In this document: positions 2,941-39,440 of the stretch, in pieces
Layout: every line of letters starts with the position of its first letter
How positions within the stretch are numbered: the stretch's first letter is position 1
Virus genome (UHGV): UHGV-0154499
From: a virus
Strand: one strand, 5' to 3'
Length of the DNA stretch: 39,490 nucleotides
Translations under genes and position numbers: made by a program
The notes under the pieces: generated by a model
Database searches by the model: none
What the model was told of the DNA's origin: nothing
The model's input: only the letters and a program-made list of their open reading frames with translations

Positions 2941-3510
2941 TTACTGCTGATCTTCGACGTATATCCCAGCAGAAATAATCGCCCCACCAATTCGACGCTT
3001 ACCATACCCTAGGGGGACGGGATATCCCTGCGCCGCTGTATTAGTTACCCCGCCGAAAGCATACGAAGCGCGGTTATCTGCACTTTGTTTACTGGCAAGA
3101 CCTGATGGTTGTGGTGAGAGCATTTGAATAACTCCACCAGCAGCCAAAGAAATGCCTGCTGTAGCCACGTAATACTGCTGTGTTACAACCCCAACAACGA
3201 CCAAAGCAGCCCCAAGAATAGTTTGTAATAACCCTGCTTTTTTACTCCCAATAATTACAGGAACTATCCGTATAACCTCTCCTGTAACAGGATAACCAAG
3301 GTCACCCTCACCAATGTTTTTTTTCCCTTTAAATATGGCGTAAGTAAGCCCACGTCGTTTACTGGAGATCATATATTTCCGAAAACCATCTATGGTAGCC
3401 GAAAGAGCAACACCAGCTTCCTGCACATTGCTAATCAGTCGATGATGGGTCTTACCATAAATTTTCCCCAGATCTCCACCGAGTTCGATACGAGTCATTA
3501 CTTCAGTCAT
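2941..3510 (-). CDS. I: Tail assembly protein I
   Basis: Ubiquitin-like N-terminus (RIELGGDL), hydrophobic glycine-rich C-terminal half (GGVIQMLSPQ) as in lambda gpI. Start moved to the internal ATG at 3510, which has an AGAGG RBS; the track start at 3528 is TTG. Confidence 0.8.
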   Translation of the reverse strand: MTEVMTRIELGGDLGKIYGKTHHRLISNVQEAGVALSATIDGFRKYMISSKRRGLTYAIFKGKKNIGEGDLGYPVTGEVIRIVPVIIGSKKAGLLQTILGAALVVVGVVTQQYYVATAGISLAAGGVIQMLSPQPSGLASKQSADNRASYAFGGVTNTAAQGYPVPLGYGKRRIGGAIISAGIYVEDQQ

Positions 3511-3569
3511 TTGAACCTCTAAAAGCAAAAAACCCCGCCGTAGCGAGGTTTTGAAGAATATTAATTTGG

Positions 3570-3980
3570 TCAGAACGCCGTTGGGTGAATGCCAAAGTCG
3601 CCATTTGTTCCATAACCAATTCGGTACATGAGCGTGGCACTTTCAGTTACCTTGCCTGACTGTTCACTCATACCACCACCACATACACCTTTGGGCCATG
3701 CGCTAAAGATATGGTCACCTAATTTAGGGTAAACCGTTACCTTTTCAGCTGTATCTAAGTCCGCAACTTCTTTCCCATCAACATAGACACGAGTCAAACA
3801 TGCGCTACCCATAAATCCAGAATCCCTCTTGATGATCACCTTCCCTGTCCCATCATTTTTAACCAACATCGTATTGTCGATAATTTGTTTGACGGGAACA
3901 TCTTTTGCCTGCTCATTTGTTACCGGCTTAGTGGCGCAACCAACCATCAAAACTGCAAGTAGAATTATTCCTCTCTTCAT
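3570..3980 (-). CDS. Putative lipoprotein of unknown function (accessory gene; possible superinfection-exclusion protein)
   Basis: Internal start MKRGIILLAVLMVGC gives a signal peptide with a lipobox (LMVGC); the 19 residues upstream in the track ORF lack an RBS. No recognisable domain. Confidence 0.6.
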   Translation of the reverse strand: MKRGIILLAVLMVGCATKPVTNEQAKDVPVKQIIDNTMLVKNDGTGKVIIKRDSGFMGSACLTRVYVDGKEVADLDTAEKVTVYPKLGDHIFSAWPKGVCGGGMSEQSGKVTESATLMYRIGYGTNGDFGIHPTAF

Positions 3981-4020
3981 ATTCCTATCCCTTTGAGTCA
4001 ATTTGCTAAAATGGTAACAG

Positions 4021-4057
4021 GGAAAAGACAGCGACAAAACCCGCAGTTAAGCGGGTT
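4021..4057 (-). terminator. Rho-independent terminator downstream of the KilAC antirepressor gene
   Basis: Minus-strand hairpin AACCCGC-TTAAC-TGCGGGTT followed by TTTGTCGCTGTCTTTT. Confidence 0.5.
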
Positions 4058-4093
4058 GTGAGTAATACGATGAATACTTGAACTGTAGCCTGA

Positions 4094-4837
4094 TCAGGCC
4101 ACACTAGCCCCTTGGAGCAAATGTCGTAATGCCTTGATGCCTTCAGAGTTATAGCGAAACGCCTCAACCTGTTTATCGGAATGTTTCGACTTGTCGAGGA
4201 AGAATTTACCGTATTGCTCTGTTTTCAGATTGTGCTTGTTAGCCAAGCGACCAACCTTATTGGCAGAACAGCCGATCTCAGCAGCAACTTCTCCAGCGGT
4301 AGCGTAGTGTTCATCAATCAACGGCAAAGGCATGACCTCGTGCCCAAGCAGTGGATTAACAAGCGTTGCAACGATCACCTGGTTTGCTGATTCACCAAGT
4401 CTTGGGAACATTGACATCAACTCACGAGCTGAGGCGATATTTTTCTCCAGCGCCAGCGCTTTCAACTGCTCCGCCTTTGCACGTCGATATTCAGGAAGAC
4501 CCGAGCTATTTTGCGCTGAAATCTGGATAGCCTGCATATCTTCCAACTTATCAACTAGAGAACGTCGAACTGCTTTCGATTCACGAGCTGCTACGCGGAG
4601 GGCTTGCTTGATAGACATTGTAATTACTTCAATGTCTTGACCATTTTTACGACCTACACTTTTTGTGTAGGTCTCACCATCAAGCTCATCGACAACTTTC
4701 TCAATGAACTTGTTATTTCGGACAACCGGCTCACCGCACTGCTTTCGCGCGGCATTCACCATCTCCAGCAGGTACTGACTGTCAATGGTTTTCTCGGTGA
4801 CAACGCTACCCTTTGATGCTAAATTTAATGAAGTCAT
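4094..4837 (-). CDS. Phage antirepressor-like protein, KilA-C/ANT C-terminal domain
   Basis: C-terminal ATAGEVAAEIGCSANKVGRLANKHNL matches the KilAC (ANT) DNA-binding pattern; AAGGA RBS 9 nt upstream of the ATG. Confidence 0.65.
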   Translation of the reverse strand: MTSLNLASKGSVVTEKTIDSQYLLEMVNAARKQCGEPVVRNNKFIEKVVDELDGETYTKSVGRKNGQDIEVITMSIKQALRVAARESKAVRRSLVDKLEDMQAIQISAQNSSGLPEYRRAKAEQLKALALEKNIASARELMSMFPRLGESANQVIVATLVNPLLGHEVMPLPLIDEHYATAGEVAAEIGCSANKVGRLANKHNLKTEQYGKFFLDKSKHSDKQVEAFRYNSEGIKALRHLLQGASVA

Positions 4838-4913: not shown

Positions 4914-5495
4914 TCAATAAATCCTCGGTCGTTCTCCCTGTTGTAGTTGTTGATCAGCATATTCCTTAATCATATATATGAATGCCGCCCCATCATTAAA
5001 ACGATCATGAAGGCGACCAGCCAAAGGTGACTCTATTGCCCTCAAAGCTGGTTCTATCTGGTTAAACCATGCTTCACACATAACCTCGAAATAATCGAAC
5101 ATTGCGTTTGCATTGTGGGCGTGGATTTCACGATTGCTGAGCATCTTTGTTGCTGGAATGTTTATAGAAACCTCACGATCCAGAATGTCTAAAACCCAGC
5201 GTCGGAATTCTTTAGCAACTGGAGTTCTGGCAAACATAGCGACCATGTGTGCGCCACGTAGAGAAAAAACCCGAGTTTCCTGATTCCCACCAGGGGTGGT
5301 CAACCTGACCACCCTTGTCATTTTTTCTGTAAATTCATCACAATGCCTAGCATGTATGCGCTGTACAGCCTTATCGTCTGCATACTGAAGCGCAAAACCG
5401 ATCTGATTTGCGCTCAACCAAATTCCATCGATATCGGAGATGGTCTGAAAAGATACGCCTTGGAAGTTAAGCTCTGTTTTGGTTACACTATTCAT
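4914..5495 (-). CDS. BRO-N domain protein (phage antirepressor/regulator family)
   Basis: BRO-N-like N-terminus (ELNFQGVSFQTISDIDGIWLSANQIGFALQY...RVFSLRGAHMVAMFARTPVAKEFRRWVLDIL). Start set at the internal ATG (MNSVTK) with an AAGGAAA RBS; the track start at 5591 is GTG and overlaps the upstream small gene. Confidence 0.7.
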   Translation of the reverse strand: MNSVTKTELNFQGVSFQTISDIDGIWLSANQIGFALQYADDKAVQRIHARHCDEFTEKMTRVVRLTTPGGNQETRVFSLRGAHMVAMFARTPVAKEFRRWVLDILDREVSINIPATKMLSNREIHAHNANAMFDYFEVMCEAWFNQIEPALRAIESPLAGRLHDRFNDGAAFIYMIKEYADQQLQQGERPRIY

Positions 5496-5568
5496 GTCGA
5501 TATTTCCTTCGCGGGATTTGTTCGATAAGAAGCCCCGGCTATCGCAATTAGTTGGGGCTTCACTGTTT

Positions 5569-5736
5569 TTAAGCCTGAGCACTTTTTTCACCTGTCAAAC
5601 CATATGCCTTTCTCAGTTGGTAAATCAGTTCGGTATTGAACTGACGACATTCTTCCCCGCCATTCCTTTCAATCGCCTCGCGAACATCCTCCGGAATGCG
5701 AATTTTGCGCTGGTACATATCTTTCGCTTTTTGCAT
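5569..5736 (-). CDS. Small Arc-like ribbon-helix-helix protein (55 aa), not in the ORF track
   Basis: Manual translation MQKAKDMYQRKIRIPEDVREAIERNGGEECRQFNTELIYQLRKAYGLTGEKSAQA; strand-helix-helix pattern like Arc/Mnt; AAGGAG RBS 6 nt upstream; first gene of the minus-strand operon ahead of BRO-N. Confidence 0.55.
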   Translation of the reverse strand: MQKAKDMYQRKIRIPEDVREAIERNGGEECRQFNTELIYQLRKAYGLTGEKSAQA

Positions 5737-5854
5737 TTCATCTCCTTAAGCCCCACCGTGGGGCACTAAAAGTGTCACACCGTGCGTCATTGAAGTCAAC
5801 CCCACCGTGGGGCATAATTTACAAATTGTGAATTTTTAGAGGTCAAGCCAGCAA
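5737..5854. promoter_or_regulatory. Divergent promoter/operator region with two copies of the 13-bp palindrome CCCCAC-C-GTGGGG
   Basis: Palindromes at about 5751-5765 and 5800-5814. Plus-strand promoter TTGAAG-17 bp-CATAAT overlaps copy 2; minus-strand promoter TTGACT-17 bp-GACACT lies just upstream of copy 1. Confidence 0.55.
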
Positions 5855-6289
5855 ATGAGCAGAGAAGATCCACAGCTTAGAATCAGACTTCCTATTGAAT
5901 TGAAAGAAAAAATTGAGGAAGCAGCTAAGTCTAATAATCGCTCCATGAATGCAGAAATTGTTCAGCGTCTTGATGCCAGTTTCTTAAGCGAAATGCCGGT
6001 AGATGAATTAGTTTCAGCTGAAGAAGCCCTACTTATCGTAAGTCGCGCAAAGGATGAACTGTCAGGGATAATTTTCAAACGGACATTTTCCGTCATTAAC
6101 GAGAAGATCCGTATTGGGCACACTACATTCCATATCAGCCTTAGCGACTTAGACCTTGAAGGCTTGAGCGATGATGATTTTGAAGCTGTGTTTAAGTCTA
6201 CATTCTCCCGCCTAAAAAGCCTGGGTTACAACATTTGGGAGTCAAGCTGGGATGTGAACGGATTCATGGTTGAGATTCCTAAGAAATAG
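5855..6289 (+). CDS. Arc/Mnt-like ribbon-helix-helix repressor with a C-terminal extension (144 aa)
   Basis: N-terminus RIRLPIELKEKIEEAAKSNNRSMNAEIVQRLDASF is a canonical Arc/MetJ-family RHH motif; transcribed divergently from the small RHH/BRO operon. Confidence 0.7.
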   Translation: MSREDPQLRIRLPIELKEKIEEAAKSNNRSMNAEIVQRLDASFLSEMPVDELVSAEEALLIVSRAKDELSGIIFKRTFSVINEKIRIGHTTFHISLSDLDLEGLSDDDFEAVFKSTFSRLKSLGYNIWESSWDVNGFMVEIPKK

Positions 6290-6296
6290 ATTCACA

Positions 6297-6321
6297 GTAA
6301 AAGCCCACCTTATGTGGGCTT
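6297..6321. terminator. Bidirectional terminator between convergent gene K and the Arc-like gene
   Basis: AAAAGCCCAC-cttat-GTGGGCTT with U-runs on both strands; overlaps the K stop codon. Confidence 0.5.
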
Positions 6322-7030
6322 ATAAAAGATCCTTATACCGTAGAACCTTTGTCGTTCTTTCCTGCCAGTATCCCCCATACGGTACACGCTGACTCAAATG
6401 ACCATAAAGATGGTGGAGTAACATGTTACCTTCCAGCAGGATCCCTGCATGGTTCCACTTATTAGCCTGGACCTGCATGATAACCATATCACCTGGCTGC
6501 GGTACGCCACTGAATTCTCGGAATCCGCATTCATACCAGCAATCGTGGTAGAAATTTTCGGGGTAACTATCCTCCCACCAGGGATAATCCACGCGGTAAT
6601 CCGTCAGCTCAATGCTATGCGTTTGCCGGAAATAACTCATCACCAGCCCCCAGCAATCGAAATGGCCGAGCACGAACGGACGTTCCAGCAGCGGTAACTC
6701 GCCGCGCGGCTGAATGGTGCGTAAATCCCCTTCCGGCCAGCTGACGATATGCCAGGGAAGTAACGTAGCGTCACACTGTGCCTTATCCAGTTCGCTCGCC
6801 TGCGTCGTGGCATCCGGGTGGCTGTGGACAATGGCAATCACTGTTCCCCAGTCTTCGGCAGCGGCATAATCTTCCGGCGACAGGTGGAAATGCTCTGTTG
6901 GATCGGTTGCCAGATTACGGCAGGGAATGTACCGCTGCACCCTGCTTTTTTGCACCACTACGCCGCAGCTCTCCCGCGGATATTCAGCGGCAGCATGCGC
7001 CATAATGGCATTGATAATTCTCTGACGCAT
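6320..7030 (-). CDS. K: Tail assembly protein K (JAB/MPN plus NlpC/P60 domains)
   Basis: JAMM motif HSHPD and an NlpC/P60-like C-terminal half; sits between L and I as in lambda. Confidence 0.85.
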   Translation of the reverse strand: MRQRIINAIMAHAAAEYPRESCGVVVQKSRVQRYIPCRNLATDPTEHFHLSPEDYAAAEDWGTVIAIVHSHPDATTQASELDKAQCDATLLPWHIVSWPEGDLRTIQPRGELPLLERPFVLGHFDCWGLVMSYFRQTHSIELTDYRVDYPWWEDSYPENFYHDCWYECGFREFSGVPQPGDMVIMQVQANKWNHAGILLEGNMLLHHLYGHLSQRVPYGGYWQERTTKVLRYKDLL

Positions 7031-7031
7031 A

Positions 7032-7787
7032 TCAGCTCCTGATCAGGGATGTACCAGGGAAACCACCAAACGGTAACTCGTTCCCCACGCCATGTCGCAA
7101 CTTGCACGCAGTGAGCGTACCGGGGCATTCATCGAGCGAAGGATCGTTAACCGGGTTGTTGTGCTTGTCGAAATAACGCGTTCCGGCATAGTCACATCCA
7201 TCACCTGAGCGGTATTTGTTACGGATACACCAGGTACAAAGCGAATGTAGCTGGCGCGTCGGGATCATCAGTCCCTGCAGGTCCATTGGACTGGACAACG
7301 TAAACGCCACCACCTCGTTGGTTTCAGTGCTCTTGGCGTCAATGTAAAACACCTTCAGCTTTTCCTGCTGCGGATCCGCTGACGGGTTGCCCTCCGGATA
7401 GTTTTTCGCATCCAGATACTGCGCCAGCGTGTCATGAATCGTGACCTTTGCCTGCAGCAGGTCATCATAAGCAAGACACAGCGCCGTAATGGAACTATCC
7501 AGGTTAGCGACCGACAGCGTCGGCTGCGCGCTGGTCCCGTCGGTCGCCGTCTCAATACCCTCGATCTGGCAGGGCCAGGCTTTATATTCCTGCCCCTGCC
7601 ACCAGATTGATTTCGCCGGTAGCTTATTTTCATCTCCACCAGCAGCGGCAATTTCATCGGGAGTGTGGGCAATGTTGTGGGCGTGGAAGCGGAGAACGTC
7701 GGAAACACCAAATGCGGTGCCATCGACATCAAAAAGCCGGACAACATTGCCCGGCTCAAGTTTCTGGTAATCACTGTTTAAGCTCAT
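7032..7787 (-). CDS. L: Minor tail protein L
   Basis: Position and size as lambda gpL; C-terminal Cys cluster (CTWCIRNKYRSGDGCDYAG) typical of gpL. Confidence 0.85.
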   Translation of the reverse strand: MSLNSDYQKLEPGNVVRLFDVDGTAFGVSDVLRFHAHNIAHTPDEIAAAGGDENKLPAKSIWWQGQEYKAWPCQIEGIETATDGTSAQPTLSVANLDSSITALCLAYDDLLQAKVTIHDTLAQYLDAKNYPEGNPSADPQQEKLKVFYIDAKSTETNEVVAFTLSSPMDLQGLMIPTRQLHSLCTWCIRNKYRSGDGCDYAGTRYFDKHNNPVNDPSLDECPGTLTACKLRHGVGNELPFGGFPGTSLIRS

Positions 7788-8131
7788 GGTGCAAACGCCT
7801 GTTCAAAGGTGGCTGATACGGTTTCCACCGTTTTACTTTTGGTGACGCGCTGCAGGCTGTCTGCCTCAACGCGCCAAAGCGCAAGATCACCGCCTGGCGG
7901 GGTAAACGAAAATGATTTCGTCTTATGGCGCCGCAGAAAAGCATAGATATCCTTGACGGTTCCCGGTTCGCCGGTAAATGAAAACTCATAGCTGAGCGTT
8001 TCATCATTCATCCCGGCACCTGACACCTGCTTATAGCCATCACCAAACTGTGCCGTGCGGACGGTATCCTTACTTTTCAGGGTCGGCTGGCTGGATGCTT
8101 TAATCCGCCACGCAAAATGCTCGATCGCCAT
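7784..8131 (-). CDS. M: Minor tail protein M
   Basis: FGDGY motif and size of lambda gpM; 4-nt overlaps with neighbouring genes. Confidence 0.82.
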   Translation of the reverse strand: MAIEHFAWRIKASSQPTLKSKDTVRTAQFGDGYKQVSGAGMNDETLSYEFSFTGEPGTVKDIYAFLRRHKTKSFSFTPPGGDLALWRVEADSLQRVTKSKTVETVSATFEQAFAP

Positions 8132-13921: not shown

Positions 13922-14947
13922 TCAGGCGAGTTTGACAGACACGAACGCATCCGGGTCAGCCAGCAGCATCAGTGGTGCAGACTGGATCATGGTGAACTCA
14001 CGCGCCGGATCGCCTGTCTGTACCCAGTTTTTCGGATAACGCGTGGAAGCGTTAATGCCTTCACGCTGGGCATCAACATCCTGAATGCAGCCGTAGGTGC
14101 GCAAACCGCGCGCCTGGGTATTACCCAGCACCATGCTCAAATCCGGCAGGTAGTTCTTTTTGGTGTCGTCTTCAATGTATTGCCCGGAGTAAACGACAAT
14201 GGCCACATCGCCATACATTCCCTTATAGGAGACCGCTTCACCCAGATCTTTCAGCGCCGTTTCCAGTTCAGAGTTAGAACCGCGACGGGTGTCGAGCTTC
14301 TCTTTTACCGCTTTGAATGAACGGAACAACGCCCAGCCCTTCGGATCAAAGACGATAATATTGACCACGCCGCTGGCGTTCAGCGCATAGGTTTCAATAT
14401 CGTCAGTGGGGTCATAGGTTTCTTTGTCGCGGGTGCTCCATGCCGCAGCACCTGCCTGGATGATGTTGTTTCCGGCACTACGTCCCATATCCACCTCAAC
14501 CGGTTCAAACGCTTCGCCGGTCATGGTGTATTTACCGTTGAGAACAGCAGCCACAGCCTGTTTCTCTTCCACCTGGGCAATCGCCAGTTCTTCATCCTTC
14601 ATGTTCTGCAGGATAATGCGACGGCGGCGGTAGGCCGGGTCAGCCAGATTTTGCGGGTCTTCATCCGGCAGGCGGCGCAGCGTCATCTGCGGGTTTACCT
14701 CGTGCTTGGGCTTGACGTAACCCGGCGTAAACTCTGACGTTGTGCCACCACGGGAGCGGATAACCTTGCCGGAAATAACCGGCGAGACGTACAGCGCCAT
14801 GTTAACCATGCCCGGGATTTGCGACAGATACACCTTCTCGGTGCTGAAGGGGTAGCTTTCACGGAAGAAGATACGCAGGAAAAGCGGATCGAATTTGAAT
14901 TTCTTCTCATTGACCGCCAGTAGTTGGGCAGTTGTGTAAATTGACAT
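13922..14947 (-). CDS. E: Major capsid protein E
   Basis: From the internal ATG (MSIYTTAQLLAVNEKKFKFDPLFLRIFFRESYPF...) the sequence is near-identical to recalled lambda gpE (341 aa); the track ORF is extended upstream into D. Confidence 0.95.
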   Translation of the reverse strand: MSIYTTAQLLAVNEKKFKFDPLFLRIFFRESYPFSTEKVYLSQIPGMVNMALYVSPVISGKVIRSRGGTTSEFTPGYVKPKHEVNPQMTLRRLPDEDPQNLADPAYRRRRIILQNMKDEELAIAQVEEKQAVAAVLNGKYTMTGEAFEPVEVDMGRSAGNNIIQAGAAAWSTRDKETYDPTDDIETYALNASGVVNIIVFDPKGWALFRSFKAVKEKLDTRRGSNSELETALKDLGEAVSYKGMYGDVAIVVYSGQYIEDDTKKNYLPDLSMVLGNTQARGLRTYGCIQDVDAQREGINASTRYPKNWVQTGDPAREFTMIQSAPLMLLADPDAFVSVKLA

Positions 14948-31073: not shown

Positions 31074-31101
31074 GGTTAACCCCTTAATTCTGTGGTTTTA
31101 A

Positions 31102-31299
31102 TCACGCAGCCGAATGGCTACGCTTTTCATAAAGTGATTGGTCAACTTTCAAATCACCTTTCGTCAGCGCTTGGATCTCAAATGCTCGTCCCTTTGGAAT
31201 AATTTCATCCCAGCCCGACACGGACGCATGAGAGATATTCAACGCCTTAGCGGTTTTCCCTACGCCACCGAAGTAAGAAATAACGTCATTCTTTTTCAT
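31102..31299 (-). CDS. cro: Cro-like HTH repressor
   Basis: 65 aa; HTH (KTAKALNISHASVSGW); divergent from cI across the operator region. Confidence 0.8.
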   Translation of the reverse strand: MKKNDVISYFGGVGKTAKALNISHASVSGWDEIIPKGRAFEIQALTKGDLKVDQSLYEKRSHSAA

Positions 31300-31398
31300 T
31301 TTTCCCTCTGGAGTTAAGTAATGCAGTGCACTGATAGTAGGATATCTTACATTAAATGGTCAAGCACTCCTACATCAGATAATGGTAGGATTGCCTAC
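31300..31398. promoter_or_regulatory. OR-like operator/promoter region between cro and cI (PR/PRM)
   Basis: Operator copies TAGTAGGATATCTTACAT (about 31335-31352) and TGGTAGGATTGCCTACAT (about 31383-31400), plus a third inverted element CCTACATCAGATAATGGTAGG. Confidence 0.65.
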
Positions 31399-32055
31399 AT
31401 GAAAATGAATGATCGAATCCGAAGCAGACGAAAAGAGCTAAAGATGACGCAATCTGTCCTGGCAAAGCTTGTCGGGGTTAATCGCGTCACCATCACCGGT
31501 TGGGAATCCGGTGACTACAAACCGGGTGGTGAAAACCTCCAGGCGCTTGCGGCTGCACTAGAAAAGACGCCGCAGTGGTTACTGGAAGGAAAGGATGATG
31601 GAAGTCAGCAACCACCAACCATGGACCCGGAGCAAAGATTCGGAATTAGGTCAGTTCCCGTTCTCACATGGGTACAGGCCGGGGAATGGACGGCCAATAG
31701 CGGAACGATCACAGAGCGGGACATTCATGACTGGGTCTATACTTCGGCTGCCGTTTCTGAAAGCGCATTTGCACTCATTGTTCGCGGCGACTCGATGACC
31801 AACCCTACAGGTGCACCAAGTATCCCCGAGGGCTCTATTGTCGTTGTAGAGCCTGATTTTGGTGATGCCAGTCAAGCTAATGGAAAAATTGTTATTGCAC
31901 AGCTTCTGGGAAGTGATGAAGCCACTATTAAAAAGTTCGTCATTGATGGGCCGCTGAAATACCTAGTACCTCTCAACCCCAATTACAGGATTTTAGAAGT
32001 CAATGGCAACTGCCGATTGGTAGGGTTAGTAAGACAAGTAATAATGGATTTATAA
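31399..32055 (+). CDS. cI: CI-like repressor (HTH plus LexA/S24 peptidase-like C-terminal domain)
   Basis: N-terminal HTH (LKMTQSVLAKLVGVNRVTITGWESG) and C-terminal S24 domain with the Ser region (IVRGDSMTNP) and the Lys-containing region (VIAQLLGSDEATIKKF); start set at MKMND. Confidence 0.88.
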   Translation: MKMNDRIRSRRKELKMTQSVLAKLVGVNRVTITGWESGDYKPGGENLQALAAALEKTPQWLLEGKDDGSQQPPTMDPEQRFGIRSVPVLTWVQAGEWTANSGTITERDIHDWVYTSAAVSESAFALIVRGDSMTNPTGAPSIPEGSIVVVEPDFGDASQANGKIVIAQLLGSDEATIKKFVIDGPLKYLVPLNPNYRILEVNGNCRLVGLVRQVIMDL

Positions 32056-38126: not shown

Positions 38127-39440
38127 ATGGATAAAGTCACATATCCAACAGGCGTCGAAAACCACGGTGGCACATTACGCATCTGGTTTAATTTTAAAGG
38201 TAAGCGTGTCAGGGAAAGTCTCGGTGTCCCTGACACCGCTAAGAACAGGAAGATAGCCGGGGAACTGCGGACATCAGTATGTTTTGCCATCCGCACAGGA
38301 ACCTTTGATTATGCAACTCAGTTTCCTGACTCCCCTAACCTCAAGGCTTTTGGTGTAAGTAAAAAAGACATTACAGTGAAAGAACTTGAAGAAAAATGGC
38401 TGGATCTGAAACGGATGGAAATCTGCGCGAACGCATTCAATCGCTATGAGTCTGTCGCAAGGAATATGGTGCCGAGGATCGGAGGTAATCGCCTGGTGTC
38501 AGCAGTAACCAAAGAGGAATTGCTGTATCTCAGGAAAGATTTGCTAACTGGTTACCAGAATCCGACGAAAAACAAAGCTCCGGCAAAAGGGCGAAGCGTT
38601 GTTACTGTGAACTATTACATGACGACAATGGCCGGAATGTTTCAGTTTGCTGCAGATCACGGTTACTTAGAGGTGAACCCATTCGAGGGAATTAAACCTC
38701 TGAAAAAAGCCAGGGCAGAACCAGATCCGCTGTCTCGTGATGAATTTATTCGCCTGATAGATGCATGCCGGCATCAGCAGACGAAAAACCTGTGGTCATT
38801 AGCAGTGTACACAGGAATGCGTCACGGGGAACTGGTCTCCCTGGCCTGGGAAGATATCGACCTGAAGGCGGGAACAATTACCGTCAGGCGTAATTATACG
38901 AAACTTGGTGAGTTCACTCTACCGAAAACCGAGGCAAGCACAGATCGAGTGGTGCATCTTATCCAGCCCGCAATCAGCATCCTGAAAAATCAGGCTGAGA
39001 TCACAAGGCTGGGCAGGCAACATCACATTGAAGTTCAGTTACGTGAGTACGGCCGTTCGGTGAACCATGAGTGTACATTCGTCTTTAACCCGCATGTGGT
39101 CAGACGCAGTAAGCAGGTCGGATTTATCTACCGGGTCGATTCAGTAGGCGACTCATGGGAAGCTGCACTTAAGCGCGCGGGGATCAGACACAGAAAGGCG
39201 TACCAGTCACGACATACCTATGCGTGCTGGTCATTATCTGCTGGTGCAAATCCGAGTTTTATTGCCAGTCAGATGGGACATGCGAGCGCGCAGATGGTGT
39301 TCAATGTTTACGGTGCATGGATGGCTGACAGCAGCGCAGAGCAAATAGCAATGCTCAATCAGAAGCTGGCAGATTTTGCCCCATTGATGCCCCATAGCCA
39401 CGAGAGCAGTACGGGAGGATTATTAAAATCAGTAAGTTAA
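38127..39440 (+). CDS. int: Tyrosine site-specific integrase with N-terminal arm-binding domain
   Basis: N-terminal GTLRIWFNFKGKRVRESLG arm-binding domain; C-terminal catalytic region with the R...H..R...Y signature (GMRHGEL, HTYACW, VFNVYGAW). Confidence 0.9.
   Translation: MDKVTYPTGVENHGGTLRIWFNFKGKRVRESLGVPDTAKNRKIAGELRTSVCFAIRTGTFDYATQFPDSPNLKAFGVSKKDITVKELEEKWLDLKRMEICANAFNRYESVARNMVPRIGGNRLVSAVTKEELLYLRKDLLTGYQNPTKNKAPAKGRSVVTVNYYMTTMAGMFQFAADHGYLEVNPFEGIKPLKKARAEPDPLSRDEFIRLIDACRHQQTKNLWSLAVYTGMRHGELVSLAWEDIDLKAGTITVRRNYTKLGEFTLPKTEASTDRVVHLIQPAISILKNQAEITRLGRQHHIEVQLREYGRSVNHECTFVFNPHVVRRSKQVGFIYRVDSVGDSWEAALKRAGIRHRKAYQSRHTYACWSLSAGANPSFIASQMGHASAQMVFNVYGAWMADSSAEQIAMLNQKLADFAPLMPHSHESSTGGLLKSVS

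Follow-up and report, generated by a model that had tools for sequence, protein, structure and literature searches.

Three operator-like palindromes between divergent RHH genes in a probable immI-type antirepressor module of a lambdoid prophage

Here we describe the control region between two divergent RHH genes in a stretch of viral DNA of 39,490 bases (the window), which is a lambda-like temperate prophage, the host phage being a lambda-like siphovirus and its source a probable Citrobacter prophage. Near-identity DNA searches of phage and E. coli collections returned distant matches only, and a scan of genome contigs found only 5 loci with full-length or near relatives. On the minus strand of the window the tail genes M, L (Phage_tail_L) and K (NlpC/P60 + JAB) occupy 6320-8131, M being assigned by position, and a tail assembly gene (I-type) lies at 2941-3528. 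A block is inserted between K and I, which consists of a mnt-like gene on the plus strand followed by an arc-like gene, a Bro-N antirepressor gene, a phrog_1726 gene and a lipoprotein gene, all on the minus strand. Within this module no recombinase gene was found by Pfam and PHROG annotation.

The Bro-N type antirepressor gene (4914-5495, minus strand) was assigned by Pfam Bro-N (1.3e-9) and by phrog_5060 and phrog_245 (anti-repressor Ant), and its start is better placed at the ATG at 5495 than at the upstream GTG at 5591. It is followed by a second gene of an antirepressor family (4094-4837, minus strand; phrog_1726 anti-repressor, 1.1e-83), which is named antirepressor in Erwinia phage Midgardsormr38, and by the lipoprotein gene (3570-4037, minus strand; phrog_890), which has the same orientation as the Bro-N gene and stands ahead of tail gene I. 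Neither antirepressor gave a significant BLASTP match to P22 Ant, their families being Bro-N, phrog_5060/245 and phrog_1726, and their relation to P22 Ant is one of functional analogy only. A CI-type prophage repressor gene (HTH_3 + Peptidase_S24) is located at 31321-32055 on the plus strand and the integrase gene at 38127-39440. By analogy with the P22 paradigm (PMC11016777), this CI-type repressor is the presumed target of the antirepressor or antirepressors. Beside it we noticed, by eye, an apparent divergent cro-like ORF within 31074-31340 (minus strand, start about 31300), 20 bp from the listed cI ORF start at 31321; because the listed start leaves no operator space, the true cI start probably lies further downstream.

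The mnt-like gene (5855-6289, plus strand) codes for a 144-aa RHH protein (Pfam Arc 6.8e-15; phrog_1388) with the N-terminus MSREDPQLRIRLP and the DNA-facing residues Q7, R9 and R11. Its best PDB match is P22 Mnt (1mnt, E = 6e-7), ahead of Arc, and in BLASTP it is 31% identical to P22 Mnt over 83 aa (E = 6e-13). Citrobacter freundii has a protein of the same sequence (100% identity), annotated merely as "Arc family DNA-binding protein". According to the AlphaFold2 model (pLDDT 79.8), the C-terminal part of about 90 residues folds into a long helix and a beta-alpha-beta-beta unit, and for this domain (residues ~55-144; 6015-6286) Foldseek matched no solved fold in the PDB, the best E being 0.067. 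Mnt-like relatives have a total length of 86-152 aa and carry unrelated tails, which points to the exchange of an oligomerisation or sensor domain as a module.

The divergently oriented first gene of the antirepressor operon (5569-5736, minus strand) codes for a 55-aa Arc-like RHH protein (phrog_228, Arc-like repressor), the DNA-facing residues of which are Q9, K11 and R13. Its Pfam Arc match (4.7e-4) stands exactly at the gathering score, and BLASTP gave a weak match to P22 Mnt and none to P22 Arc. The protein is kept in at least 60 variants. Both genes flanking the interval, taken for RHH genes in a reading made from the sequence only (the sequence-only reading below), belong to the Arc/Mnt family, on the grounds of Pfam Arc in both and of 1mnt as the best PDB match of the 144-aa protein.

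Between the arc-like stop and the ant ATG lies a candidate sar-like antisense RNA (5497-5564, plus strand), with a terminator hairpin at 5529-5561 followed by a T-run. It matches Rfam RF00262 over the full length with 33.1 bits (E = 1.1e-4), under the gathering score of 43; at the equivalent position RF00262 scores above gathering in the O157:H7 module and in phage TL-2011b (44.8 bits). Its terminator stem resembles that of P22 sar. A candidate promoter for this RNA (TTGGAA, 18 nt, TACACT) was seen at 5460-5489, within the 5' end of ant.

The ATGs of the two divergent RHH ORFs are separated by a gap of 118 bp (5737-5854). The sequence-only reading had reported here two identical 13-bp palindromes, and CCCCACCGTGGGG is indeed found exactly at 5751-5763 and 5800-5812, with no further exact copy in the 39,490-base window. 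That count of two stands for the exact copies and fails for the operator-like sites as a whole, which are three: the repeat finder returned a third copy, TCACACCGTGCGTCA, at 5775-5789, 73% identical to the perfect ones. Extended to 17 bp, the sites are A (5749-5765, centre 5757; AGCCCCACCGTGGGGCA), B (5773-5789, centre 5781; TGTCACACCGTGCGTCA) and C (5798-5814, centre 5806; AACCCCACCGTGGGGCA), all of which match one consensus, TGnCnCAC-N-GTGnGnCA. The centre-to-centre spacing is 24 bp for A-B and 25 bp for B-C, so that site B is placed midway; the outer copies A and C are an inverted repeat pair of 18 nt, with the overlapping -35 hexamers of the two promoters between them. A relaxed form of the operator consensus has no further occurrence in the 39,490-base window, the immunity region included. 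In 100 dinucleotide-preserving shuffles of the 39.5-kb window not even 1 exact copy of CCCCACNGTGGGG appeared (0/100), and this result together with the absence of the consensus elsewhere in the window rules out a chance origin of the palindromes.

An imperfect dyad of another type, TTTACAAATTGTGAA (TTTAC-N5-GTGAA), is located at 5818-5832, with the predicted mnt-like transcript start at its centre, and is moderately conserved. Among related regions it tracks one Arc-like lineage (46/54), which would make it a candidate operator of the Arc-like protein, but the association is confounded by shared ancestry; other lineages have different dyads at this position. We rejected the dyad as a CI/Cro-type operator, having found no copy of it above chance in the immunity region or in the rest of the window.

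The arrangement of promoters, predicted to be of the sigma-70 type and placed back to back, agrees with the divergent pair with overlapping -35 elements that had been read from the letters. On the plus strand the consensus scan found a predicted mnt-like promoter at 5790-5818, TTGAAG (5790-5795), 17 nt, CATAAT (5813-5818), with 9/12 matches and a predicted start near 5825. On the minus strand the predicted arc-ant promoter (5799..5771) consists of TTGACT (5799..5794), 17 nt and GACACT (5776..5771), preceded by a TGT extended -10 (5779..5777), with a predicted start near 5764. This promoter scores 8/12, which is under the scanner threshold, and was therefore missed by the scan; its -10 GACACT is weak. 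The -35 hexamers have 2 bp in common (5794-5795), and about 61 bp separate the predicted starts. As judged from this geometry, RNA polymerase probably cannot sit on both promoters simultaneously. The layout is mirror-like, each 17-nt spacer containing TCAA first and then one operator (B on the minus strand, C on the plus strand). Site A begins 5 bp past the minus-strand -10 and spans approximately +1 to +15 of the predicted arc-ant transcript. Site B takes up the spacer of the minus-strand promoter, runs into the -10 and extended -10 of that promoter and stops 1 bp short of the plus-strand -35. Site C likewise takes up the spacer of the mnt-like promoter on the plus strand and reaches 2 bp into its -10.

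In P22 immI, ant is governed by two protein repressors and an antisense RNA (PMC2629481; PMC11016777); Mnt represses arc and ant, and Arc inhibits the expression of mnt and moderates that of ant (PMC11016777). In the P22 record the mnt operator (14822-14844) contains AGGTCCACGGTGGACCT, which starts 6 bp past the Pant -10, and the arc operator is placed within the Pant spacer. The module in the window shares with P22 immI a mnt-like and an arc-like RHH gene that diverge from each other, the latter opening the antirepressor operon, a 17-bp palindromic operator with a CCAC-N-GTGG core just past the -10 of the ant promoter (site A), an operator within the ant promoter spacer (Oarc in P22, site B here) and its nature of a moron in the late/tail operon (PMC2629481). 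At the place that sar takes in P22, between arc and ant, it has the candidate sar-like RNA, the match of which is under gathering, as given above. By the core and the position shared with the annotated P22 operator, site A matches Omnt, and site B stands at the Oarc position. Taken together with the RHH genes at both flanks, these similarities support the interpretation of the palindromes as Arc/Mnt-type operators that the sequence-only reading had offered.

The two regions also differ in several respects. Here there are three predicted operators of one family, in contrast to one Omnt and an unrelated Oarc in P22. A distinct Arc operator like that of P22 (21 bp, TAGA boxes) was looked for, and no TAGA-N-TCTA was present in 5700-5870; the spacer holds the Mnt-type site B instead. 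In P22, Pant and Pmnt overlap almost fully on opposite strands, each -10 lying over the -35 of the other, whereas here only the -35 hexamers overlap. Unlike in P22, the mnt-like promoter bears a predicted operator of its own (C), and the 144-aa Mnt-like protein ends in a C-terminal domain unrelated to the P22 Mnt tail.

Conservation of the region was followed in scans of viral contigs seeded with site B and with site C, which gave more than 120 loci and, from these, 85 distinct control regions. As site-seeded scans are biased for the bases of B and C, we relied on positions outside the search patterns and, in addition, on samples seeded with protein sequence. Site B is identical in 80/85 regions, and the perfect 13-mer is present at site C in 77/85 regions vs 22/84 at site A. 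Site A is the most variable of the three (32 distinct 17-mers), and that the two outer copies are perfectly identical is peculiar to the present lineage. At site C the centre base varies (C57/G21/A5/T2 in the 85 regions) with the arms fixed. The B-C spacing is 25 bp in 84/85 regions, and the A-B spacing is either 24 or 26 bp. The promoters are conserved as well: A2 and T6 of the -10 and TTG of the -35 of the mnt-like promoter are invariant in the 85 control regions, and so are 5771 and 5795-5799 (T6 of the minus-strand -10 and TTGAC of the -35), which lie outside both search patterns; 5775 (A2 of the minus-strand -10) is likewise invariant, but it falls within one search pattern.

In all three sites of the 85 regions the positions ±1-3 (CAC/GTG), ±5 and ±7 are invariant, and ±4, ±6 and the central base are free. 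Changes in the arms were one-sided in 40 cases vs 6 symmetric double changes. Since the changes at ±4 and ±6 mostly affect one arm, they point to contacted and tolerated positions of a protein operator and not to compensatory pairing. As far as sequence comparison can tell, the pattern resembles that expected of an RHH operator, in which contacted positions are fixed, other positions vary and the arms change together with the residues of the beta-strand.

This last property was followed in the protein-seeded samples. The first consisted of loci found solely by similarity to the Mnt-like N-terminus in seven distant genera or groups, i.e. Roseomonas, Comamonas, Stenotrophomonas, a Xanthobacteraceae MAG, Bartonella, Aurantimonas and Paracoccus, and 2-3 CAC-N-GTG palindromes were present in each case within 160 nt upstream, the background being 0.05 per 160 nt. 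In all but one of these seven loci, a small RHH gene diverges from the mnt-like gene and an antirepressor gene of the Bro-N or Rha type comes after it. In total, the layout recurs in 85 distinct control regions and across Alpha-, Beta- and Gammaproteobacteria. The second sample comprised 60 distinct upstream regions from protein-seeded viral contigs. Among the regions with a Q-R-R head, 25/27 had three strict sites, with the B-C distance of 25 bp in 25/25 and a canonical site B in 24/25.

Depending on the head of the Mnt-like protein, the arms of the sites differ: the H-N-R head (P22) goes with the arm GGTCCAC, the Q-N-R head (ST160 type) with AGACCAC, the Q-K-R head with (A/G)(A/G)ACCAC or GGATCAC, the Q-R-R head of this window with GCCCCAC and the K-M-R head with GTCAC. 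Three Q-K-R modules have common arms, yet three different Arc-like heads. In distant modules in which the Arc-like and Mnt-like heads differ, all three sites are of one type, which matches the Mnt-like head. The ST160 and Aurantimonas modules are without an arc-like gene and retain the sites. As the arms follow the Mnt-like head and the sites are kept without an arc-like gene, they are best assigned to the Mnt-like protein, and this covariation over about two dozen independent lineages makes it most likely that A, B and C are operators of the Mnt-like repressor. In the lineage of the window, Q9/K11/R13 of the Arc-like protein nearly equal Q7/R9/R11 of the Mnt-like one, and because the heads are nearly identical, covariation cannot separate the two proteins there.

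Taking these data together, we find it quite probable that the 118-bp interval serves as the control region of an immI-type antirepressor module, inserted as a moron amid the tail genes of the lambdoid prophage. By homology and covariation, the Mnt-like repressor would bind A, B and C with one dimer per half-site, as P22 Mnt does. Its occupancy of A at the transcript start and of B in the spacer and -10 would block the arc-ant promoter, keeping the antirepressor off in the lysogen, and its occupancy of C in the spacer of its own promoter would result in negative autoregulation. Upon infection or loss of the Mnt-like protein the arc-ant promoter would fire, after which the Arc-like protein and the sar-like antisense RNA may restrain the antirepressor output, as they do in P22; the Arc-like protein may use the same sites, most plausibly B. 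The antirepressors would then act on the CI-type repressor, again by analogy with P22. As the -35 hexamers overlap, the geometry suggests that the promoters compete for polymerase, and silencing of arc-ant could favour the mnt-like promoter, as reported for P22. The term "bistable switch", which the sequence-only reading applied to this region, is an extrapolation.

One observation runs counter to a model with a single DNA-binding protein: the best-kept perfect site, C, is located on the Mnt-like protein's own promoter, and site A at the ant start is usually imperfect. Such a distribution of perfect sites (with the frequencies given above) is not obviously suited to a maintenance repressor. 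Moreover, the near-invariant deviant arms of site B could reflect a dedicated binder, as is the case for Oarc at this position in P22. An alternative is a division of labour similar to that of P22, in which the Mnt-like protein would act on the CCCCAC-type sites A and C only, and B would be the operator of the Arc-like protein, through which it represses both promoters. Besides its Oarc-equivalent position, site B has arms unlike those of A and C at ±4 and ±6, and they hardly vary, not even the right arm, which lies outside the promoter hexamers. At one locus (L178) two B-type arms make up a perfect palindrome at site A, where the GTCACAC arm is under no promoter constraint, and P22 Arc is known to inhibit mnt expression and to moderate ant expression (PMC11016777). 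However, the extended -10 (TGTGACA) already constrains the left arm of B, variation at site B is rare and goes to the A/C type (GTGGGGCA, GTGAGGCA), at another locus (L005) the sequence of site A equals that of site B, and the distant modules with unlike heads have three sites of one, Mnt-matching type. On balance we consider such a division of labour unlikely.

Action at the level of RNA would mean that site A is a 5'-terminal hairpin of the arc-ant mRNA, controlling its stability or translation, and that the symmetry of the DNA is a by-product. The predicted leader does fold into a 6-bp hairpin (-10.7 kcal/mol) right at its 5' end, with 2 nt between hairpin and ribosome-binding site. Nevertheless, we find this explanation very improbable: site C, identical in sequence, is part of a promoter spacer and precedes the predicted mnt-like transcript start, and the excess of one-sided over symmetric arm changes, with mismatches at ±4 and ±6 and a free central base, counts against a conserved hairpin. 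The palindromes were also rejected as terminators, there being no T-run after them. That the sites serve a factor encoded elsewhere (prophage CI/Cro or a host regulator), or recombination or inversion around the 36-bp promoter segment, is scarcely credible. In its favour stands the inverted repeat pair of 18 nt that A and C make up on either side of the -35 overlap; against it, neither the immunity region nor any other part of the window has the motif, and across phyla the sites accompany the RHH genes, with arms that vary according to the RHH beta-strand. As an invertible or recombination element the region was rejected outright, since the module is without a recombinase and the sites follow the RHH genes.

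Returning to the three operators of the Mnt-like protein, we offer tentatively a wider reading which joins three propositions. According to it, the three-operator layout of single specificity over two back-to-back promoters could be the common and probably ancestral immI-type design across Proteobacteria, with P22 as a derived outlier; in the lineage of the window the two RHH repressors, with almost the same head (Q-R-R and Q-K-R) and differing only in their oligomerisation or C-terminal domains, could compete for the same three operators, the circuit being set by their ratio; and the head/arm pairs (N-GACCAC, K-AACCAC, R-CCCCAC) could constitute a usable RHH recognition code.

The immI or "ant moron" type of system is already well known, and it is not a new regulatory principle that is described here. 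RHH repressors with several operators, such as Arc, CopG and AmrZ, use a beta-ribbon to read short symmetric half-sites, and their operators overlap promoter elements. Their operator sequences and gene contexts are unrelated to those of the window, and in the searches made none of them was found organised as three equal-type sites over back-to-back promoters. In the literature within our reach, these operator sequences, a three-operator layout or experiments on such modules were not found, which is a weak negative, older subscription papers having been mostly outside that reach. Antirepressor modules determine the silence of a prophage and the waking of neighbour prophages. Hundreds of genomes contain modules of the present kind under generic annotation, among them about 300 complete ones of E. 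coli, mostly O157:H7, and many Enterobacterales bear them with the genes labelled just "Arc family DNA-binding protein". The control region is widely conserved, experimentally tractable and departs from the textbook layout of P22. If the three-operator reading is true, it gives a testable wiring diagram for a widespread and uncharacterised control region and evidence that the family does not in general follow the P22 paradigm, and the modules form a natural matched series of repressors and operators for the study of DNA reading by the RHH beta-strand.

Two groups of related modules may be compared with that of the window. The mnt-only remnants of ST160, SE1, ST64T and L have a Mnt homolog with a Q-N-R head, preceded by (A/G)AGACCAC-N-GTGGTCTT with the same core; the ST160 mnt gene is preceded by AAGACCACGGTGGTCTT. 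Unlike the present module, these usually have one operator and are without arc or ant, and the mnt-only region in P22-like phages is regarded as degraded or repurposed (PMC2629481; PMC8022706). The lambdoid prophages of O157:H7 carry their module in the same insertion neighbourhood, between the tail genes L and K, and it likewise contains Mnt-like and arc-like genes, sar (66.7 bits), Ant and three CAC-N-GTG sites. It differs in its TATCAC arms, in another geometry of the sites and in an 84-aa Mnt-like protein with a tail resembling that of P22 Mnt. One of these strains, E. coli O157:H7 RIMD 0509939 (locus L197, 3041-3151), has a truncated arc-like gene of 36 aa, which about 230 bp of seemingly non-coding DNA separate from sar.

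In phage TL-2011b (NC_019445; locus L063, ~3975-4064) a frameshift after codon 9 (MSREDPQLR) interrupts the mnt-like gene, and the start of the deposited CDS lies further downstream; as 15 related viral contigs have an intact 117-aa version, the frameshift is either a mutation or a sequencing error. In the same locus a Bro-N gene follows closely on a C4 antisense RNA (RF01695, 77.7 bits) and isrK, the latter with 76.7 bits (564-749 and 797-1492), which looks like a second antirepressor module, of the phage P1 type, about 2 kb from the immI-type one.
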